This document shows, in pieces, positions 3,008 to 29,895 of a DNA stretch of 64,000 nucleotides. The stretch is from Defluviitaleaceae bacterium (GTDB lineage: Bacteria; Bacillota; Clostridia; Lachnospirales; WRBF01). Position 1 is the first letter of the stretch; each line of letters begins with the position of its first letter. The notes under the pieces were generated by a model. That model saw nothing but the letters and a program-made list of their open reading frames with translations, ran no database searches and was not told the origin of the DNA. A program made the position numbers and the translations under genes. The stretch lies in assembly GCA_009784685.1 (NCBI GenBank), contig WRBF01000001.1, positions 2,942-66,941 on the forward strand. The letters are read 5' to 3'.

Positions 3008-3679
3008 CTATTCTAGCCGGATGTATTCTTCGGGTGTTATTGATATAAATTGTATTAAATCTCCCGCCTCATATAATATAGGCTTTTCACGATTAGGGTC
3101 AAACATTTTATATGGTGTCCTTCCGATCAACTGCCATCCGCCGGGGCTTTCTATTGCATAAATTCCTGTTTGAGCTCCTGCAATTCCTACGCTTCCAGGT
3201 ATAACTTTTGTTCTGGGAGATGTTAAGCGGGGAGCGTTTATTTTCTTATCAAGTTCACCTAAAAATGAAAATCCCGGCATAAAACCGAGCATGTAAATCA
3301 GATAAGGCTTTGAAGTATGAATTTTTACAACTTCCTGTGCTGTAATTCCATTAATTTCTGCAACAGACTCAATATCTGGACCAAATTCGCCGCCATAACA
3401 AACAGGAATTTCAATAATATTCGGATTTTTAATGTCTTTAGTGCACATATTTAGCTCAGACTCTTTAAGCTTAGATACAAGCTCTGAATAAGAAATAACT
3501 AGAGGGTCATAGGTTATAGTCAGTGCTTTATACGACGGAAACGTCTCCGTAATTCCTTCAATTTTGGAAGAAATAACTGCACTTTGAAATGCCGTCACTG
3601 CTTTATTAAGCTCTTCTGAAATAGATTGTCCGAATTCAACTACGATTGCTTTGTCACCTAATGTTAAATATTTCGCCAT
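3008..3679 (-). CDS. pxpB: 5-oxoprolinase subunit B (KipI/AHS1 family)
   Basis: IPVCYGGEFGPD, LGFMPGF, PR, GSVGIAG.QTGIY, SPGGWQLIGRTP. Confidence 0.92.
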   Translation of the reverse strand: MAKYLTLGDKAIVVEFGQSISEELNKAVTAFQSAVISSKIEGITETFPSYKALTITYDPLVISYSELVSKLKESELNMCTKDIKNPNIIEIPVCYGGEFGPDIESVAEINGITAQEVVKIHTSKPYLIYMLGFMPGFSFLGELDKKINAPRLTSPRTKVIPGSVGIAGAQTGIYAIESPGGWQLIGRTPYKMFDPNREKPILYEAGDLIQFISITPEEYIRLE

Positions 3680-4447
3680 TTAAACAATCTCCTTTAACGC
3701 CGTCGGATGTATCCCCTCAGCCGCTAGCGCAGATTTAATTGCCGTAACAAACTCTACGGCTTCCGGGTTGTCACCATGAACACAAATCGAATGCGGTTCA
3801 AGGTTAATTGCTTCGCCTGTTAAACAAATAACAGTTTTATCCTTAACCATTTTAACGACACGCTTTGCGCACTGTTCAACATCATGAATCATTGCCCCTT
3901 TTATCCCCCGTGCAACTAAAGTGCCGTCTTTGTTATAAGCTCTGTCAGCAAAAACCTCGTTTGCGGCTTTAAGCCCTATGTCATTTGCCGCTCTAGTCAT
4001 TTCGCTGTTTGCAAGGGCAAGGAATATGATAGTTTTATCTATTTCATAAATTGCATCAGCTATTGCTCGAGCAATATTATAATCAACCGCAGCCATATTA
4101 TAAAGTGCGCCATGTGGTTTTACATGTTGAATTTTTTGACCCTTAGCTTTAGCAAAGGCCCAAAATGCGCCTATTTGATATTTAACATAAGCCTTTACTT
4201 CTTCAGTAGAAACAGCCATAGCCCTTCTACCAAAACCCAGTAAATCGGGCAAACCAGGGTGCGCTCCGACCATAACCCCGTTTTTAACCGCCATCTCGAC
4301 AGTCTTTTCCATAACAACAGGGTCTCCCGCATGGTATCCGCAGGCAATATTTGCAGAGGTCACGTGTTTTAATATTTCATCATCATACCCTAACCTGTAA
4401 TTGCCAAAACTTTCGCCTAAGTCTGAATTTATGTCAATCTGATACAT
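3680..4447 (-). CDS. pxpA: 5-oxoprolinase subunit A (LamB/YcsF family)
   Basis: [50 protein letters not shown]; ATG at 4447 after GGAGG. Confidence 0.94.
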
Positions 4448-25527: not shown

Positions 25528-25602
25528 CAGAAGAGGTGTACAACTCATACTATTGCTTTTAGAAAGAGATAGTATCCACTATGTATGAAAGGGGAAAATG
25601 AT

Positions 25603-25926
25603 ATGATGGATAGAAGTGCCAATGGTATTATTGAGTGCCTAATGCCGCATATAGGCAGGACTGTTACAGTGTTTACTGAAAGCGGAGGTATTTCCGGGTC
25701 TGGTTTTACGGGCGTTTTATTAACAGCAGACTTTGGTTGTATAAGACTTCTTGCAAGTATCGGCGCACCGCCTGCATGTCCAATCGGAAGCACTTGCCTT
25801 GATTCGTTTAGTCCGGGTCTTGGAAGAAGTGGTCCTGAAGGCGCACCGTTTTTCGGCAACCCAATGGGCGCAATTTGTGTAATTCCAACTGATGCTATTG
25901 TATGCTTTACGCATAATGCGATTTAG
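25603..25926 (+). CDS. Cys/Gly/Pro-rich hypothetical protein, probable spore coat component
   Basis: HIGRTVTVFTESGG.SG.GFTGVL...IP.DAIVCFTHNAI; AAAGGGG RBS; sigma-K-like promoter and own terminator. Confidence 0.65.
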   Translation: MMDRSANGIIECLMPHIGRTVTVFTESGGISGSGFTGVLLTADFGCIRLLASIGAPPACPIGSTCLDSFSPGLGRSGPEGAPFFGNPMGAICVIPTDAIVCFTHNAI

Positions 25927-26047: not shown

Positions 26048-26326
26048 ATGAAAAAAATAATAATTTATGGAAGCTCACATTGACCGGGCTGTGAGCCGGT
26101 GAAAGAGGTTCTTTCCCAAAGAAATATTAAGTATGCATATGTTGATATTACATCGGGTATGTTTGGGCTTAAAAACTTTTTAAAGATTAGGGATAATAAT
26201 GAGAGTCATGCAAAATTACGAGTAAATGGCTTGGTTGGTATTCCAACATTAGTCGTTGATGATAAAAGCTATTTAATATCAGGTCCAGAGGCTATGGAAC
26301 ATCTTGTTGAAGAGCTTGAGTTATAG
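26048..26326 (+). CDS. Glutaredoxin-like selenoprotein (UxxC), 92 aa
   Basis: AGGAGGA RBS, ATG 26048, MKKIIIYGSSH-TGA(26081)-PGC continuing in frame into the tracked ORF; VDIT and GIP.LVV glutaredoxin motifs. Confidence 0.85.
26098..26117 (+). promoter_or_regulatory. Candidate bacterial SECIS element
   Basis: GAAAGA-GGT-TCTTTC hairpin with a G-starting apical loop about 23 nt after the TGA. Confidence 0.55.
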
Positions 26327-26339
26327 ATAATGCTGCAAA

Positions 26340-26370
26340 AGAGTAGGTAGGGTAATCCTGCCTCTTTTTT
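26340..26370. terminator. Probable bidirectional terminator
   Basis: AGGTAGG-GTAAT-CCTGCCT stem followed by CTTTTTT, between convergent genes. Confidence 0.6.
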
Positions 26371-26376
26371 GTGGTA

Positions 26377-27015
26377 TTATCCGCTATCATTGTTTATCAA
26401 TGATATAATCTCATGTATCAAGAACATTCGATCATCTAACTCAGCGATTTTATCAGCACAGATTATAAGTTCATCGCTTAAATGCTTTGGTATTTGCTCC
26501 TTATATTTGTATTTGGCTTGATGTTCAAGTGTAGCCCAAAAATTCATAGCCTCTGTACGTATTTGGATTTCTATAGGTAAAGTTTCTGTTTTACCGGAGT
26601 GATATATCTCAATTTCCATAATGATATGGTAACTTCGATACCCGCTATGCTTAGGGTTAGTTACATAATCCTTTTCGCTTATGATATTTCCGTCCGGCAT
26701 TGATCTGATAAGCTCTGCCAAAAAATAAATATCCTTAGCATACGGACAAATAATCCGGATGCCGGCTATGTCGTTTAAATGATTTTTTGCATTTTTCGCA
26801 GTCAATTCAACGCCTTGCTTATGTAATTTGCTTGCAATACTTTCAGCAGATTTAATACGCCCAGTTATATACCCAATAGGGTTAGTGTTTTGGTAATACT
26901 TATGGGCTTCGTGGATAATGTTTAACTTTGTTAACATTGTTCTATGCACCCATTCATATGAAAGAAGAAGCTCTTTAAGCAGCTTAAATTCATTGTCGTT
27001 AAACCGTGCAGACAT
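26377..27015 (-). CDS. Small alarmone synthetase (RelA/SpoT SYNTH domain, RelP/YwaC-like)
   Basis: GRIKS..SI..K, DIAGIRIIC, KDYV.NPK.SGYRSYH, EIQIRT.AMNFWATLEH..KYK all intact. Confidence 0.92.
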   Translation of the reverse strand: MSARFNDNEFKLLKELLLSYEWVHRTMLTKLNIIHEAHKYYQNTNPIGYITGRIKSAESIASKLHKQGVELTAKNAKNHLNDIAGIRIICPYAKDIYFLAELIRSMPDGNIISEKDYVTNPKHSGYRSYHIIMEIEIYHSGKTETLPIEIQIRTEAMNFWATLEHQAKYKYKEQIPKHLSDELIICADKIAELDDRMFLIHEIISLINNDSG

Positions 27016-27032
27016 TTGTTATTACCTCCGAT

Positions 27033-28082
27033 TTATTTTAGGGGAAGTGTTAAGGTGAAAACTGCCCCAGTACCTGAGCAATTTTCCGCTGCTACATGAC
27101 CTTCATGTTGGTCAGCTATTGACTTTACAATGGCAAGTCCAATACCTGTATTACCGCCTTTACCCTTATAAAAGCGCTCGAAAACATGCGGCAAAGTTTC
27201 GGATTCTATGCCGTTGCCGTCATCTGTCACACTTATTTGTATTTGTTTATCTTTTTTACGGCACGATATCACAATTTCAGATATTGCGTAACGTATTGCG
27301 TTGGAAATAAGATTGTCAACTGCCCTTGATATAAGCTCGGTCACACATTCATATGAAATTTCACCTTTATCAAGGTCAAAAATAAACTTAACTTGCTTTT
27401 TGTCTGCTATTACTTGTTGACGTGCGGCACATTCTTTAATAATTTTAATCAAATCCGATTTTTCTGTGTTGTATGCCGTAGTAATATTGTCAATTTTTGC
27501 AATATACAGCAAATCAGTAACCAAATCCGATAACCTGTCTGTTTCCTTTAAAATTGTTTCGCCTGCTTTTTTAGGCTCCATAAGCCCATAAACTATACCT
27601 TCCGCATAAACTTTGATAGACATTAGGGGCGTTCGTAATTCATGTGATGCATTTTGGAAAAAATCCTTTTGCATTTTGTCATGAGCTCCTAACTGTCTTA
27701 CAGACTTATTAAAAGCAGCATTTAGGCTTTCTATTTCCATGTCTTGAAATTCAAAATCATTAGTTTCAAAATTACCTTTACCTATGCCAAGTGCAAATTT
27801 ACTTAATTTTTCAATAGGGCGTGTTATTGAGTTAGATAGAAAATAAGTAACAACCACTGAAACTACAAACATTATAGCAACAAGTGCAATAAGCGTGGCT
27901 CCTGCTCTGCCTGTTACTGCTTCTTCCGCAACATGGTAATCATAATCGCCGGAAGTAAATAACCTTATGATGATATTGAAGATAATCCCCGTGAGCAAGA
28001 AAGAAAAAAACAGCACAGAGGAAAAGGCGGCAAGAATTCTTTGACGCAATCTTGTTTTCTTTTTATCATTATTTGATCTCAT
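27033..28082 (-). CDS. HAMP-containing sensor histidine kinase
   Basis: Two TMs with about 22-aa loop, HAMP (ITRPI..L), SHELRTPL H-box, NL.SNA.RY, D.G.GI, FERFY, G.GL. Confidence 0.93.
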   Translation of the reverse strand: MRSNNDKKKTRLRQRILAAFSSVLFFSFLLTGIIFNIIIRLFTSGDYDYHVAEEAVTGRAGATLIALVAIMFVVSVVVTYFLSNSITRPIEKLSKFALGIGKGNFETNDFEFQDMEIESLNAAFNKSVRQLGAHDKMQKDFFQNASHELRTPLMSIKVYAEGIVYGLMEPKKAGETILKETDRLSDLVTDLLYIAKIDNITTAYNTEKSDLIKIIKECAARQQVIADKKQVKFIFDLDKGEISYECVTELISRAVDNLISNAIRYAISEIVISCRKKDKQIQISVTDDGNGIESETLPHVFERFYKGKGGNTGIGLAIVKSIADQHEGHVAAENCSGTGAVFTLTLPLK

Positions 28083-28087
28083 TATTT

Positions 28088-28504
28088 TTATCCATTTCGT
28101 CCAAAATGTAGTTCATCATACGCCTTTTTTTCAAACTCCATGCGCCTAAAAATAGCATTAATCCTCATAGTAAGTGCCATAGGGCTGAAAGGTTTTGTTA
28201 AATAATCATCGCTGCCTAAATCCAAACCGGTAGCATAATCTAAGTCGCTATCTCTTGCAGTAAGCATTATTATTGGTACGGTGCTAACCTTGCGTAATTC
28301 TTTGCATACTATGAAGCCATTAGAACCGGGCATCATTACATCTAAGACTACCAAATCTGCAGGCTTTTCTGAAAAAGCTTCAAGAAGCAAATCACCATTT
28401 TCAAAATCTTCAACAGTATATCCTGCACTCTCTAAAAATGCCTTAATACCAAGCCTTATCGTGGTTTCATCATCAGCAATATAGATTTTTTTTGCTTCGT
28501 TCAA
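28088..28504 (-). CDS. Response regulator, OmpR-type receiver domain with no DNA-binding domain
   Basis: IADDE, LDVMMPG, MLTA, DDYLTKPF; ends ELHFGRNG*; probable TTG start at 28504 (28513 possible). Confidence 0.88.
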   Translation of the reverse strand: MNEAKKIYIADDETTIRLGIKAFLESAGYTVEDFENGDLLLEAFSEKPADLVVLDVMMPGSNGFIVCKELRKVSTVPIIMLTARDSDLDYATGLDLGSDDYLTKPFSPMALTMRINAIFRRMEFEKKAYDELHFGRNG

Positions 28505-28521
28505 AAAAATCAACCCTTTAT

Positions 28522-29334
28522 TTATAAAATTGTTTTTGTTGCAATTTGAATTCTTTCTTTCTCAAGTTCTTGAAGAATATTTTTGCGTGCATCACTGCAA
28601 GCGATAAAATTGTTAGAAACACTTGCTGTCCACATACTTGAACGTAATTCTACACCATAAAGCCCAAGAGCACGCACAAAAACCGGCACTTTCGGATTAG
28701 TTTGTTGCTGTTCTAATGTACGTGTATCTACAAAATCCCTATGTTCCCCTATAACATTTGCCATAATTTCACAGGCTTTTGGAACATCAGAGCCATACGA
28801 AATAATAACATCTATAAAGGATGAAGCCTGTGCGCTGTTGAAATTTGCGTTCTCAATAAGTTCTTTATTTAGAACTGAATTTGGCACTATTATCCGGCTG
28901 TTCATAAAAGTACGTATAACTGTGTGTCTGATTGTGATGTCTTCAACAAAGCCTGTAATGTCAGAATTTACAAGATGCACACGGTCGCCGACCTCGAACG
29001 GTTTTGAAATTGATATAAATAACCCATTAAAAGCGTTTCCAAGAGATTCCTGTGCTGCAAGACCTATTGTTATTGCAACTATACCCGAACCGGCAATTAA
29101 AGCAGCAGCAGCATCTGCAAATTGAGGGAATCGACCTAATGCAAGAACAATGCCCACAACCCAAATGACTGCGCTAAGCACATTCTTAATAAATTTTTGG
29201 TAGATCGTATTCCTCCCAAAAATCCCCCAAATTATTCGAAAAATTTTTGTAACAAACAAAGTAGATAACAATGTTGCAATTACACGCGCTATAATCCAAC
29301 CAGAGTATTCGCTGTAAAGGAAGTTGTGTAACAT
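28522..29334 (-). CDS. MscS family mechanosensitive channel
   Basis: Three N-terminal TMs, GLAAQ.SL.N.F.G, KPFEVGD.V, G.VE.I.IR.T, VPNS. Confidence 0.92.
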   Translation of the reverse strand: MLHNFLYSEYSGWIIARVIATLLSTLFVTKIFRIIWGIFGRNTIYQKFIKNVLSAVIWVVGIVLALGRFPQFADAAAALIAGSGIVAITIGLAAQESLGNAFNGLFISISKPFEVGDRVHLVNSDITGFVEDITIRHTVIRTFMNSRIIVPNSVLNKELIENANFNSAQASSFIDVIISYGSDVPKACEIMANVIGEHRDFVDTRTLEQQQTNPKVPVFVRALGLYGVELRSSMWTASVSNNFIACSDARKNILQELEKERIQIATKTIL

Positions 29335-29505
29335 AGGTTATTAGTCTCCATTCATAAAAAACTAGAAGCTCTCATATCGAGGGTAGAGCAAAAGCAGTCG
29401 AACTGCGTCAGATATTTATTCGCTAAAGACAACTTTTCAGAATAATTATGGATAAATTTTGCAACGAAAACAGTTTTAAATGTATTCGGCTTCGATGCAT
29501 GTTAT

Positions 29506-29895
29506 TTATGATAACTTATCTAACTTTTTACTTTCTCTTAATTCATACAAATTTACGACAACGCATCCTAAAAAATACATTACTATGTCCCACCAGTCAA
29601 ACGTAACTCCTATAACCACTCTAGCGATCTGAGAATGCCCGAGCCCTATCATATATACTAATCCGAAATACTGCATAATCTCTACTAAAACAGCAAATGC
29701 GAAAATGTACAACCAAAGAAATTTAAGTCTGTTCCGAAGAAAAATGCGCATAAGACAATAGATGAAAAGAACAATCAAAATATCCCCGAAGTGATTTCTA
29801 ATAAATCCACTTTCCACAAAAAGAGCTATTAGCACTATAACAATAAGAAAGATCATAGATGCTGTAAAATACTTGAAACTAAAAGCAATTTTCAT
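29506..29895 (-). CDS. DUF2809 family membrane protein
   Basis: FIR..FGD.L, VE..QY, VIG.TF.W.DI..Y..G. Confidence 0.75.
   Translation of the reverse strand: MKIAFSFKYFTASMIFLIVIVLIALFVESGFIRNHFGDILIVLFIYCLMRIFLRNRLKFLWLYIFAFAVLVEIMQYFGLVYMIGLGHSQIARVVIGVTFDWWDIVMYFLGCVVVNLYELRESKKLDKLS

Follow-up and report, generated by a model that had tools for sequence, protein, structure and literature searches.

We analyzed a 64,000-nucleotide (nt) stretch of contig WRBF01000001.1 from a Defluviitaleaceae bacterium (hereafter the window, meaning the whole stretch), for which a preliminary description had proposed a four-gene operon relaying membrane tension to alarmone synthesis. We found that the conserved unit is a three-gene signaling cassette, in which the genes for a stand-alone receiver (REC), a membrane histidine kinase (HK), and a RelP-like small alarmone synthetase (SAS) are inherited together, without the mscS gene that precedes them in the window. 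From the make-up of this cassette, we propose that phosphorylated REC may control SAS by protein contact, either activating or inhibiting it, and we put the probability of this reading at about 0.5.

As described previously, the four genes are co-oriented, and we recovered them as four minus-strand open reading frames (ORFs) with exactly the outer limits given for the operon (29334..26377):

28522..29334, minus strand, MscS-family channel gene, 270 amino acids (aa); ORF list and Pfam MS_channel_2nd/3rd
28088..28504, minus strand, stand-alone receiver (REC) gene, 138 aa (141 aa if the TTG at 28513 is used); Pfam Response_reg only
27033..28082, minus strand, sensor histidine kinase (HK) gene, 349 aa; Pfam HisKA + HATPase_c
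26377..27015, minus strand, RelP-like small alarmone synthetase (SAS) gene, 212 aa; Pfam RelA_SpoT

The short gaps of about 5-17 nt reported between them were also borne out, with 8 nt between mscS and REC (17 nt with the start at 28504), 5 nt between REC and HK, and 17 nt between HK and SAS. Operon structure was judged from gene spacing only.

REC, HK, and SAS recur together in genomes and metagenomes

With HK as the query, we searched 400 further genomes from its order and obtained a match at E ≤ 1e-40 in 60 of them (61/401 with the window genome, G000). The 30 best HK loci were examined, including the window's own, and the 29 others were distributed as follows:

22/29, short REC (126-160 aa) + HK + SAS, overlapping or closely spaced (SAS cut by the contig end in L116)
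1/29, REC + degenerate GGDEF + HK + SAS (L120)
1/29, short REC + HK, no adjacent SAS (L122)
3/29, REC-GGDEF + HK, no adjacent SAS (L118, L127, L128)
2/29, REC-Trans_reg_C (winged helix) + HK, no SAS (L130, L143)

SAS adjoins 22 of the 23 short-REC genome loci that could be judged. The genes upstream of the cassette change between loci (among them P-type ATPase, chromate transporter, VanW, and homoserine succinyltransferase), and no further gene was constantly linked to REC-HK-SAS in the genome loci. In five loci from two families (L119, L131, L138, L139, L141), a PLD-like gene (PLDc_2, cardiolipin-synthase-like) lies on the same strand directly upstream of REC, which may reflect a membrane-lipid link or plain synteny.

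A second sample was drawn from metagenomes with a degenerate motif pattern of the REC clade, which picked out at least 107 stretches, of which 80 were fetched; these loci are not independent, because many come from few sample series. They were sorted by the form of the receiver:

Short REC, SAS after the kinase, 30
Short REC, SAS before the receiver, 4
Short REC, SAS on neither side, 1 (L180)
Short REC, not judgeable because of contig ends, 28
REC-GGDEF, SAS downstream, 3
REC-GGDEF, cut by the contig end, 2
REC-Trans_reg_C, no SAS, 8 (one checked downstream only)
REC-Trans_reg_C, SAS upstream, 1 (L169)
REC-Trans_reg_C, not judgeable, 2
Other long form, 1

Among the judged short-REC metagenome loci, SAS is adjacent in 34 of 35. 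The order is SAS-REC-HK in L150, L151, L193, and L210, so that the linkage outlasts a changed gene order. The neighborhood survey suggested in the preliminary description therefore found the REC-HK-SAS trio conserved, with the short regulator carried by the SAS-bearing relatives. Relatives with a full OmpR-type regulator, which that description had named as speaking against its proposal, do exist; no SAS adjoins the winged-helix REC in 13 of the 14 such loci judged (L130, L143, L144, L145, L148, and eight of nine metagenome loci). As for the genomes that carry winged-helix forms, G007 and G741 gave no SAS of the clade at E ≤ 1e-20, and G322 gave only a 36%-identical copy.

The distribution of the cassette is patchy. 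HK had no match in the five other genomes of the window's own family (0/5), and the nearest cassette, that of G147 (REC 88%, HK 72%, SAS 84%), belongs to another family. Because the own-family genomes are without the kinase and the nearest copy sits in another family, the cassette looks like a unit that is moved or lost as a whole. Full-length HK orthologs at 55-72% identity were found in 12 genomes of the same order. Outside it the HK clade is rare, with 2 of 398 other genomes in the class sample (E ≤ 1e-60) and 4 of 400 in the phylum sample (E ≤ 1e-55); three loci in these samples with a REC of the clade (62-69% identity) encode full OmpR-type regulators without SAS.

MscS is not part of the conserved cassette

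The claim that membrane tension, through MscS, belongs to the pathway was not borne out. MscS lies beside none of the 29 other genome loci and beside none of the 53 metagenome loci whose contig extends 900 nt or more upstream of the receiver. Searched in the five genomes that carry the closest cassettes (completeness 68-93%), the window MscS had no match at E ≤ 1e-10, and in the five same-family genomes it had none at E ≤ 1e-15. The mscS-REC junction holds no terminator-like site, and mscS is probably co-transcribed with the cassette in the window genome. We conclude that MscS is a chance or lineage-specific operon neighbor, outside the conserved cassette.

REC is a single-domain response regulator under strong constraint

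The preliminary description of REC as a receiver without an output domain was correct: Pfam finds Response_reg only, over model positions 1-110 of 111, and REC is a single-domain response regulator with a complete receiver fold and nothing else. The Trans_reg_C winged helix, the mark of OmpR/PhoB-family regulators, is absent (PF00072 is the only Pfam match), and because the gap between the REC stop and the HK start is only 5 nt, no further domain can be encoded there. The most likely start of REC is the second TTG (28504), which lies 11 nt after AAAGGG and fits a ribosome site better than the TTG at 28513; the called protein P0001 has the same length of 138 aa. REC ends 17 residues after helix 5, and beyond this helix the tails of 22 cassette receivers vary freely in length and sequence. 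Across these 22 sequences, the acidic pair D11 and D12, the phospho-Asp D55, and the Lys K104 are invariant, and the Thr T82 is nearly so (138-aa numbering).

The receiver domain itself is of the OmpR-family type. Its best NCBIfam matches, all far below the full-protein cut-offs, are the REC halves of RpaB, CreB, OmpR, and others, and the members of the REC clade outside the order consist of REC + Trans_reg_C. We scored 8000 candidates in a protein search with REC, of which 7996 passed E 0.001; the best 120 of these 7996 are all 127-167 aa long, carry PF00072 only, and are 76-100% identical to REC. Short forms account for 84 of the 108 aligned members of the REC clade. A scan of the genome contigs with the REC protein returned, among the matches listed, generic regulators at 35-51% identity.

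The ratio of nonsynonymous to synonymous substitution rates (dN/dS), given only for pairs with a computable dS since most are saturated at synonymous sites, was 0.018-0.081 between short RECs, 0.036-0.074 for SAS, and 0.066-0.175 for HK. The short REC is under strong purifying selection, with a dN/dS below that of HK and similar to or below that of SAS. Within the window genome, no other receiver comes closer to REC than 44-46% identity, so there is no close full-length paralogous regulator as an alternative partner of HK. Short and winged-helix RECs differ at two clean group-specific positions only (A49 versus C, P108 versus A), and two positions do not suffice to define a surface; in addition, the search pattern itself biases columns 87-101.

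HK fits the layout of an intramembrane-sensing kinase

HK matches the Pfam models HisKA (1.8e-15) and HATPase_c (2e-24), with the H-box SHELRTPL at residue 146, and hydropathy peaks at residues 16-34 and 64-82 indicate two membrane helices. It had been described as a HAMP kinase with an external loop of about 22 aa. The short loop stands, at about 20 aa as read from the sequence, but HAMP is weak, the HAMP-like linker reaching E 0.0022 and 18.7 bits against a Pfam cut-off of 25. Intramembrane-sensing histidine kinases are characterized by two membrane helices and a loop too short for a sensor domain, and HK, with its two helices and ~20-aa loop, fits this layout. About 130 residues lie between the helices in the kinases linked to winged-helix receivers and in many SAS-linked ones; the short loop is the derived state, an external domain of ~130 aa having been lost in the window genome. 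Since this domain is gone, HK probably detects its signal inside the membrane or by way of a partner.

SAS is an intact RelP-like synthetase

SAS consists of a single RelA_SpoT domain (PF04607, 7.9e-32) in 212 aa, with no hydrolase domain. Its earlier assignment as an intact RelP-like synthetase agrees with its best solved relatives, the YwaC/RelP chains 6fgk, 6fgj, and 6ewz (150-152 bits), behind which YjbM/RelQ follows at 118 bits; the NCBIfam model GTPPhKinYjbM gave 174 bits, below its cut-off of 320. In the alignment to 6fgk, the synthetase motifs DxxG.R, YRS.H, E.Q.RT, and H...Y are present, and D82, G85, R87, Y126, R127, S128, H130, E149, Q151, R153, T154, H165, and Y169 are invariant in the SAS clade. 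Toward the N terminus, F5, E9, F10, K14, and Y20 are conserved in the SAS-linked clade. On the basis of these motifs, SAS is predicted to make (p)ppGpp or pGpp. It also matches the PADLOC candidate model PDC-S33 at domain level, and the other three proteins gave no PADLOC match.

The window genome, assembled to 77% completeness in 56 contigs, additionally encodes one long Rel and a second SAS of ~270 aa. Four metagenome proteins (P0121-P0124) of ~425 aa, twice the length of SAS, carry PF04607 only, at 75-93% query cover, and may be tandem-duplicated synthetases.

The bare receiver probably derives from a REC-GGDEF ancestor

The kinase-linked copies cluster in the SAS tree as one clade on a long stem (25 rows; Shimodaira-Hasegawa-like approximate likelihood ratio test [SH-aLRT] 99), which also takes in L005 and L006; the SAS of L016 and the second SAS of the window genome fall in other clades. 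When the REC tree is rooted on regulators further away, the winged-helix forms make up a basal grade, and all short and GGDEF forms join in one clade (SH-aLRT 90). The same two main subclades appear in both trees. At L130 (2515-3843), the winged-helix pair is followed by VTC-domain and DUF4956 genes, possibly a polyphosphate-related regulon of the ancestral system.

After metagenome rows were added to the REC tree (108 rows), the short L151 and L172 grouped with the winged-helix L169 and L205 (SH-aLRT 98), and in the SAS tree all five SAS-upstream copies fall in one clade (SH-aLRT 100). These groupings hint that the winged helix was lost once more, independently, beside SAS. The approximately unbiased (AU) test, applied to a 48-row subset, did not reject one common origin for every REC that lacks the winged helix (p 0.58), and we count one or two events. 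At L151 (2243-4811), where the reading frames of the contig appear rich in G+C, the order is SAS-REC(short)-HK, and at L169 (3-2465) it is SAS-(REC-winged helix)-HK, as in Streptococcus mutans relPRS; the two loci resemble steps of an intermediate series.

The closest metagenome relative among the 80 fetched, L195 (REC 87%, HK 81%), contains an out-of-frame relic of the C-terminal third of GGDEF in the ~190 nt between the REC stop and the HK start (oriented ~3640-3830), and in L200 a REC-GGDEF fusion is still in frame. Taking the relic and the in-frame fusion together, the window's bare REC probably arose from a REC-GGDEF ancestor by deletion of the GGDEF domain. Further relatives of REC carry the GGDEF cyclase in cis (L118, L207, L226), which demonstrates that the REC lineage serves to drive a nucleotide-messenger enzyme.

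An intact-GGDEF receiver, its kinase, and SAS share one locus in L192, L207, and L226, where a single kinase may act on c-di-GMP and (p)ppGpp synthesis alike. Two genomes with a kinase locus lacking an adjacent SAS, G232 and G343, have a second HK+SAS locus elsewhere; in both (C208 and C231 in G232, C224 and C183 in G343) the HK+SAS locus is accompanied by a fast-evolving paralogous REC-GGDEF+HK locus, with a stem branch of 2.7-3.0 in the REC trees.

Control of SAS by phosphorylated REC and its alternatives

In the mechanism that we propose, the membrane HK would take up a membrane or envelope signal and phosphorylate the stand-alone REC, the phosphorylated REC would act on the co-encoded RelP-like SAS by protein contact, and the signal would thereby reach (p)ppGpp/pGpp synthesis without a transcriptional step. 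Phosphotransfer from HK to REC is suggested by their adjacency (5-nt gap) and co-inheritance. Transcriptional control by the window REC is excluded because it has no DNA-binding domain. REC most simply acts on SAS, because it binds no DNA, keeps its phospho-acceptors, evolves more slowly than HK, and has SAS as its sole other constant companion. Of the pathway bypassing transcription that had been put forward, the HK, REC, and SAS part is retained as a conserved trio, but the MscS part fails. A prediction of the complex of SAS with REC, built on an alignment of each, gave a score of 0.08, below the mark of 0.32, which counts neither for nor against contact. Going further, we may consider a direct His-Asp route in which REC~P binds and gates the RelP-type SAS, one REC-HK input module is exchanged in the course of evolution among DNA binding (winged helix), c-di-GMP synthesis (GGDEF in cis), and (p)ppGpp synthesis (SAS in trans), and some organisms run both messengers from one kinase; we offer this wider scheme tentatively, at somewhat less than even odds.

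Several observations weigh against control of SAS by REC. Two short-REC loci have no adjacent SAS (L122, L180). In L192, L207, and L226, a REC-GGDEF with an intact GGDEF motif nevertheless has SAS downstream, so SAS may share an operon with a receiver that has another output. Some SAS copies of the clade have no kinase pair with them (L005, L006) or lie apart from it (G105 and G139, with a kinase locus lacking an adjacent SAS and a SAS on other contigs with no kinase beside it), and SAS can therefore work on its own. In L169 and in the distant L016, SAS is joined to a full OmpR regulator, and control there is presumably transcriptional. A fusion of REC with SAS was not found, as none of the 13 longer SAS relatives has PF00072, which is a weak test. 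Moreover, as few as one or two evolutionary events may lie behind the association, which means that the loci cannot be counted as independent.

Some of these points would follow if the genes were merely co-expressed, with SAS riding in the operon, constitutive or under its own allosteric control, and REC serving as a phosphate sink, a kinase modulator, or a regulator of an unlinked target. SAS does stay downstream where REC has its own GGDEF output, it occurs in G034 and G029, where HK gave no match at E ≤ 1e-40, and in G105 and G139 it lies away from the pair. A pair without a DNA-binding domain cannot regulate the operon, yet REC appears to be under the tightest constraint in the cassette; REC accompanies SAS in 34/35 and 22/23 judged short-REC loci, and no other conserved neighbor is there to serve as its target. 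We regard mere co-expression as the main rival, though less likely than control of SAS by REC. A reading in which REC is a decaying regulator, truncated not long ago and functionless in itself, could draw on L195 and L200, whose out-of-frame relic and in-frame fusion make a deletion probable; however, short forms supply the best 120 of the 7996 REC matches and 84 of the 108 aligned clade members, dN/dS of short pairs is 0.02-0.08 with saturated dS, and the active-site residues are invariant or nearly so, all of which makes decay very improbable.

We give just as little credence to a four-gene pathway running from MscS and membrane tension through the short-loop HK and REC to SAS. The end of mscS only 8-17 nt before the REC gene, with no terminator-like site between, and the ~20-aa loop of HK would suit it, but MscS is missing beside the cassettes elsewhere (0/29 and 0/53) and from the five closest-cassette genomes at E ≤ 1e-10, and cassettes whose kinases have the long loop are equally conserved. 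It is scarcely credible that REC neutralizes a growth-arresting SAS in the manner of a toxin-antitoxin pair. Small partner genes beside SAS toxins (toxSAS) are known, and RelP, to which our SAS is nearest, is reported as non-toxic, according to the part of the preprint available to us (bioRxiv 10.1101/575399); the domain-level match to PDC-S33 would favor such a pair, whereas the other three proteins have no PADLOC match, the commonest order puts the kinase gene between REC and SAS, and SAS occurs alone in G034 and G029. Control of SAS by phosphorylated REC remains the reading that we prefer.

Other features around the cassette

The surroundings of the cassette in the window comprise two hairpins and three further genes:

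26345..26363, called on the plus strand, terminator-like hairpin between the SAS gene and the convergent 75-aa gene; consensus scan
29394..29406, minus strand, short terminator-like hairpin between the DUF2809 gene and mscS; consensus match only
25585-25926, plus strand, small ORF of 113 aa, convergent with the cassette; no Pfam match at E ≤ 0.01
26099-26326, plus strand, small ORF of 75 aa, convergent with the cassette and ending at the shared hairpin; no Pfam match at E ≤ 0.01
29506-29895, minus strand, DUF2809/VanZ-like membrane protein gene just upstream of mscS, with the short hairpin between; Pfam

The terminator said to close the operon does exist as a hairpin at 26345-26363, but the call is on the plus strand and so belongs to the convergent gene; read on the minus strand, the stem is weaker, with a mismatch in place of one wobble pair. 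The hairpin at 29394..29406 likely marks the upstream limit of the transcription unit. The terminator scan found 2 sites, compared with 2.4 expected in shuffled sequence. Two public runs contain contigs that span 26300-29500 unbroken and with zero differences; these contigs may be the source of the window DNA and are therefore not independent support.

Significance and comparison with known systems

A cassette with a non-DNA-binding regulator that nevertheless appears to be the best conserved of its three proteins points to a fast route from membrane signal to alarmone without transcription. If REC~P does gate SAS, this would be the first two-component pathway with (p)ppGpp synthesis, not transcription, as its output. 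The cassette is small, with three proteins of which one is soluble and has 138 aa, and it is widespread in uncultured anaerobes. In addition, the winged-helix, GGDEF, and bare forms of one REC clade make a natural series for studying output swapping in response regulators.

A phospho-receiver drives the synthesis of a nucleotide second messenger in the REC-GGDEF response regulators of the PleD/WspR type. Members of the window REC clade likewise carry GGDEF (L118, L207, L226); unlike in the PleD/WspR type, where the enzyme is fused in cis, the candidate target here is a separate protein making (p)ppGpp, not c-di-GMP. CheY, DivK, and CpdR are single-domain response regulators that act by protein contact. 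As far as the available sources describe them, these regulators and MrrA resemble REC in being receivers without an output domain in which the phospho-acceptor residues are conserved; the window REC is of OmpR-family and not of CheY-type descent. We know of no report that CheY, DivK, CpdR, or MrrA acts on an alarmone synthetase. Phosphorylated EIIA-Ntr acting on SpoT/Rel is a case in which a phosphorylation-dependent partner sets the activity of a (p)ppGpp enzyme, but such partners act on the regulatory domains of long Rel/SpoT, whereas the 212-aa SAS has no such domains.

Our literature search, with most subscription journals outside its scope, found no paper linking an alarmone synthetase with a receiver-only regulator. 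In the available portion of a review of (p)ppGpp-enzyme regulation, response regulators appear only for NtrC and relA transcription (PMC6606846), and the toxSAS preprint, in the text at hand, reports that RelP operon structures vary and contains no mention of a response regulator, histidine kinase, or two-component system (10.1101/575399). In Firmicutes, two-component control of RelP/RelQ is described, in the accessible part of PMC10117726, as transcriptional, via VraRS in Staphylococcus aureus and WalKR in Bacillus subtilis. As in those cases, an envelope-sensing two-component system would govern a small alarmone synthetase here (PMC10117726); unlike VraRS and WalKR, which from the same portion bind DNA and have the synthetase genes as unlinked regulon members, the genes here form one cassette with a non-DNA-binding regulator.

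The closest parallel is relPRS of Streptococcus mutans, in which, according to the sections available of PMC4963387 and PMC3353171, the RelP synthetase is in an operon with the two-component system RelRS, that is, LlrF/KinF; SMU.927 (RelR/LlrF) is placed there in the OmpR family, its role being given as "control of alarmone synthesis" (PMC3353171). On this description, both systems place a RelP-type SAS in one operon with a histidine kinase and a regulator, and some relatives of the cassette (L150, L151, L169) have the same order of SAS, response regulator, and histidine kinase. The window differs in the order REC-HK-SAS and in a regulator without a DNA-binding domain, the relPRS regulator being of the OmpR family as far as these sources go. 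Taken together, the comparative pattern is clear and the mechanism is what we infer from it: the cassette appears to be a relPRS-like system whose regulator has been reduced to a bare receiver.

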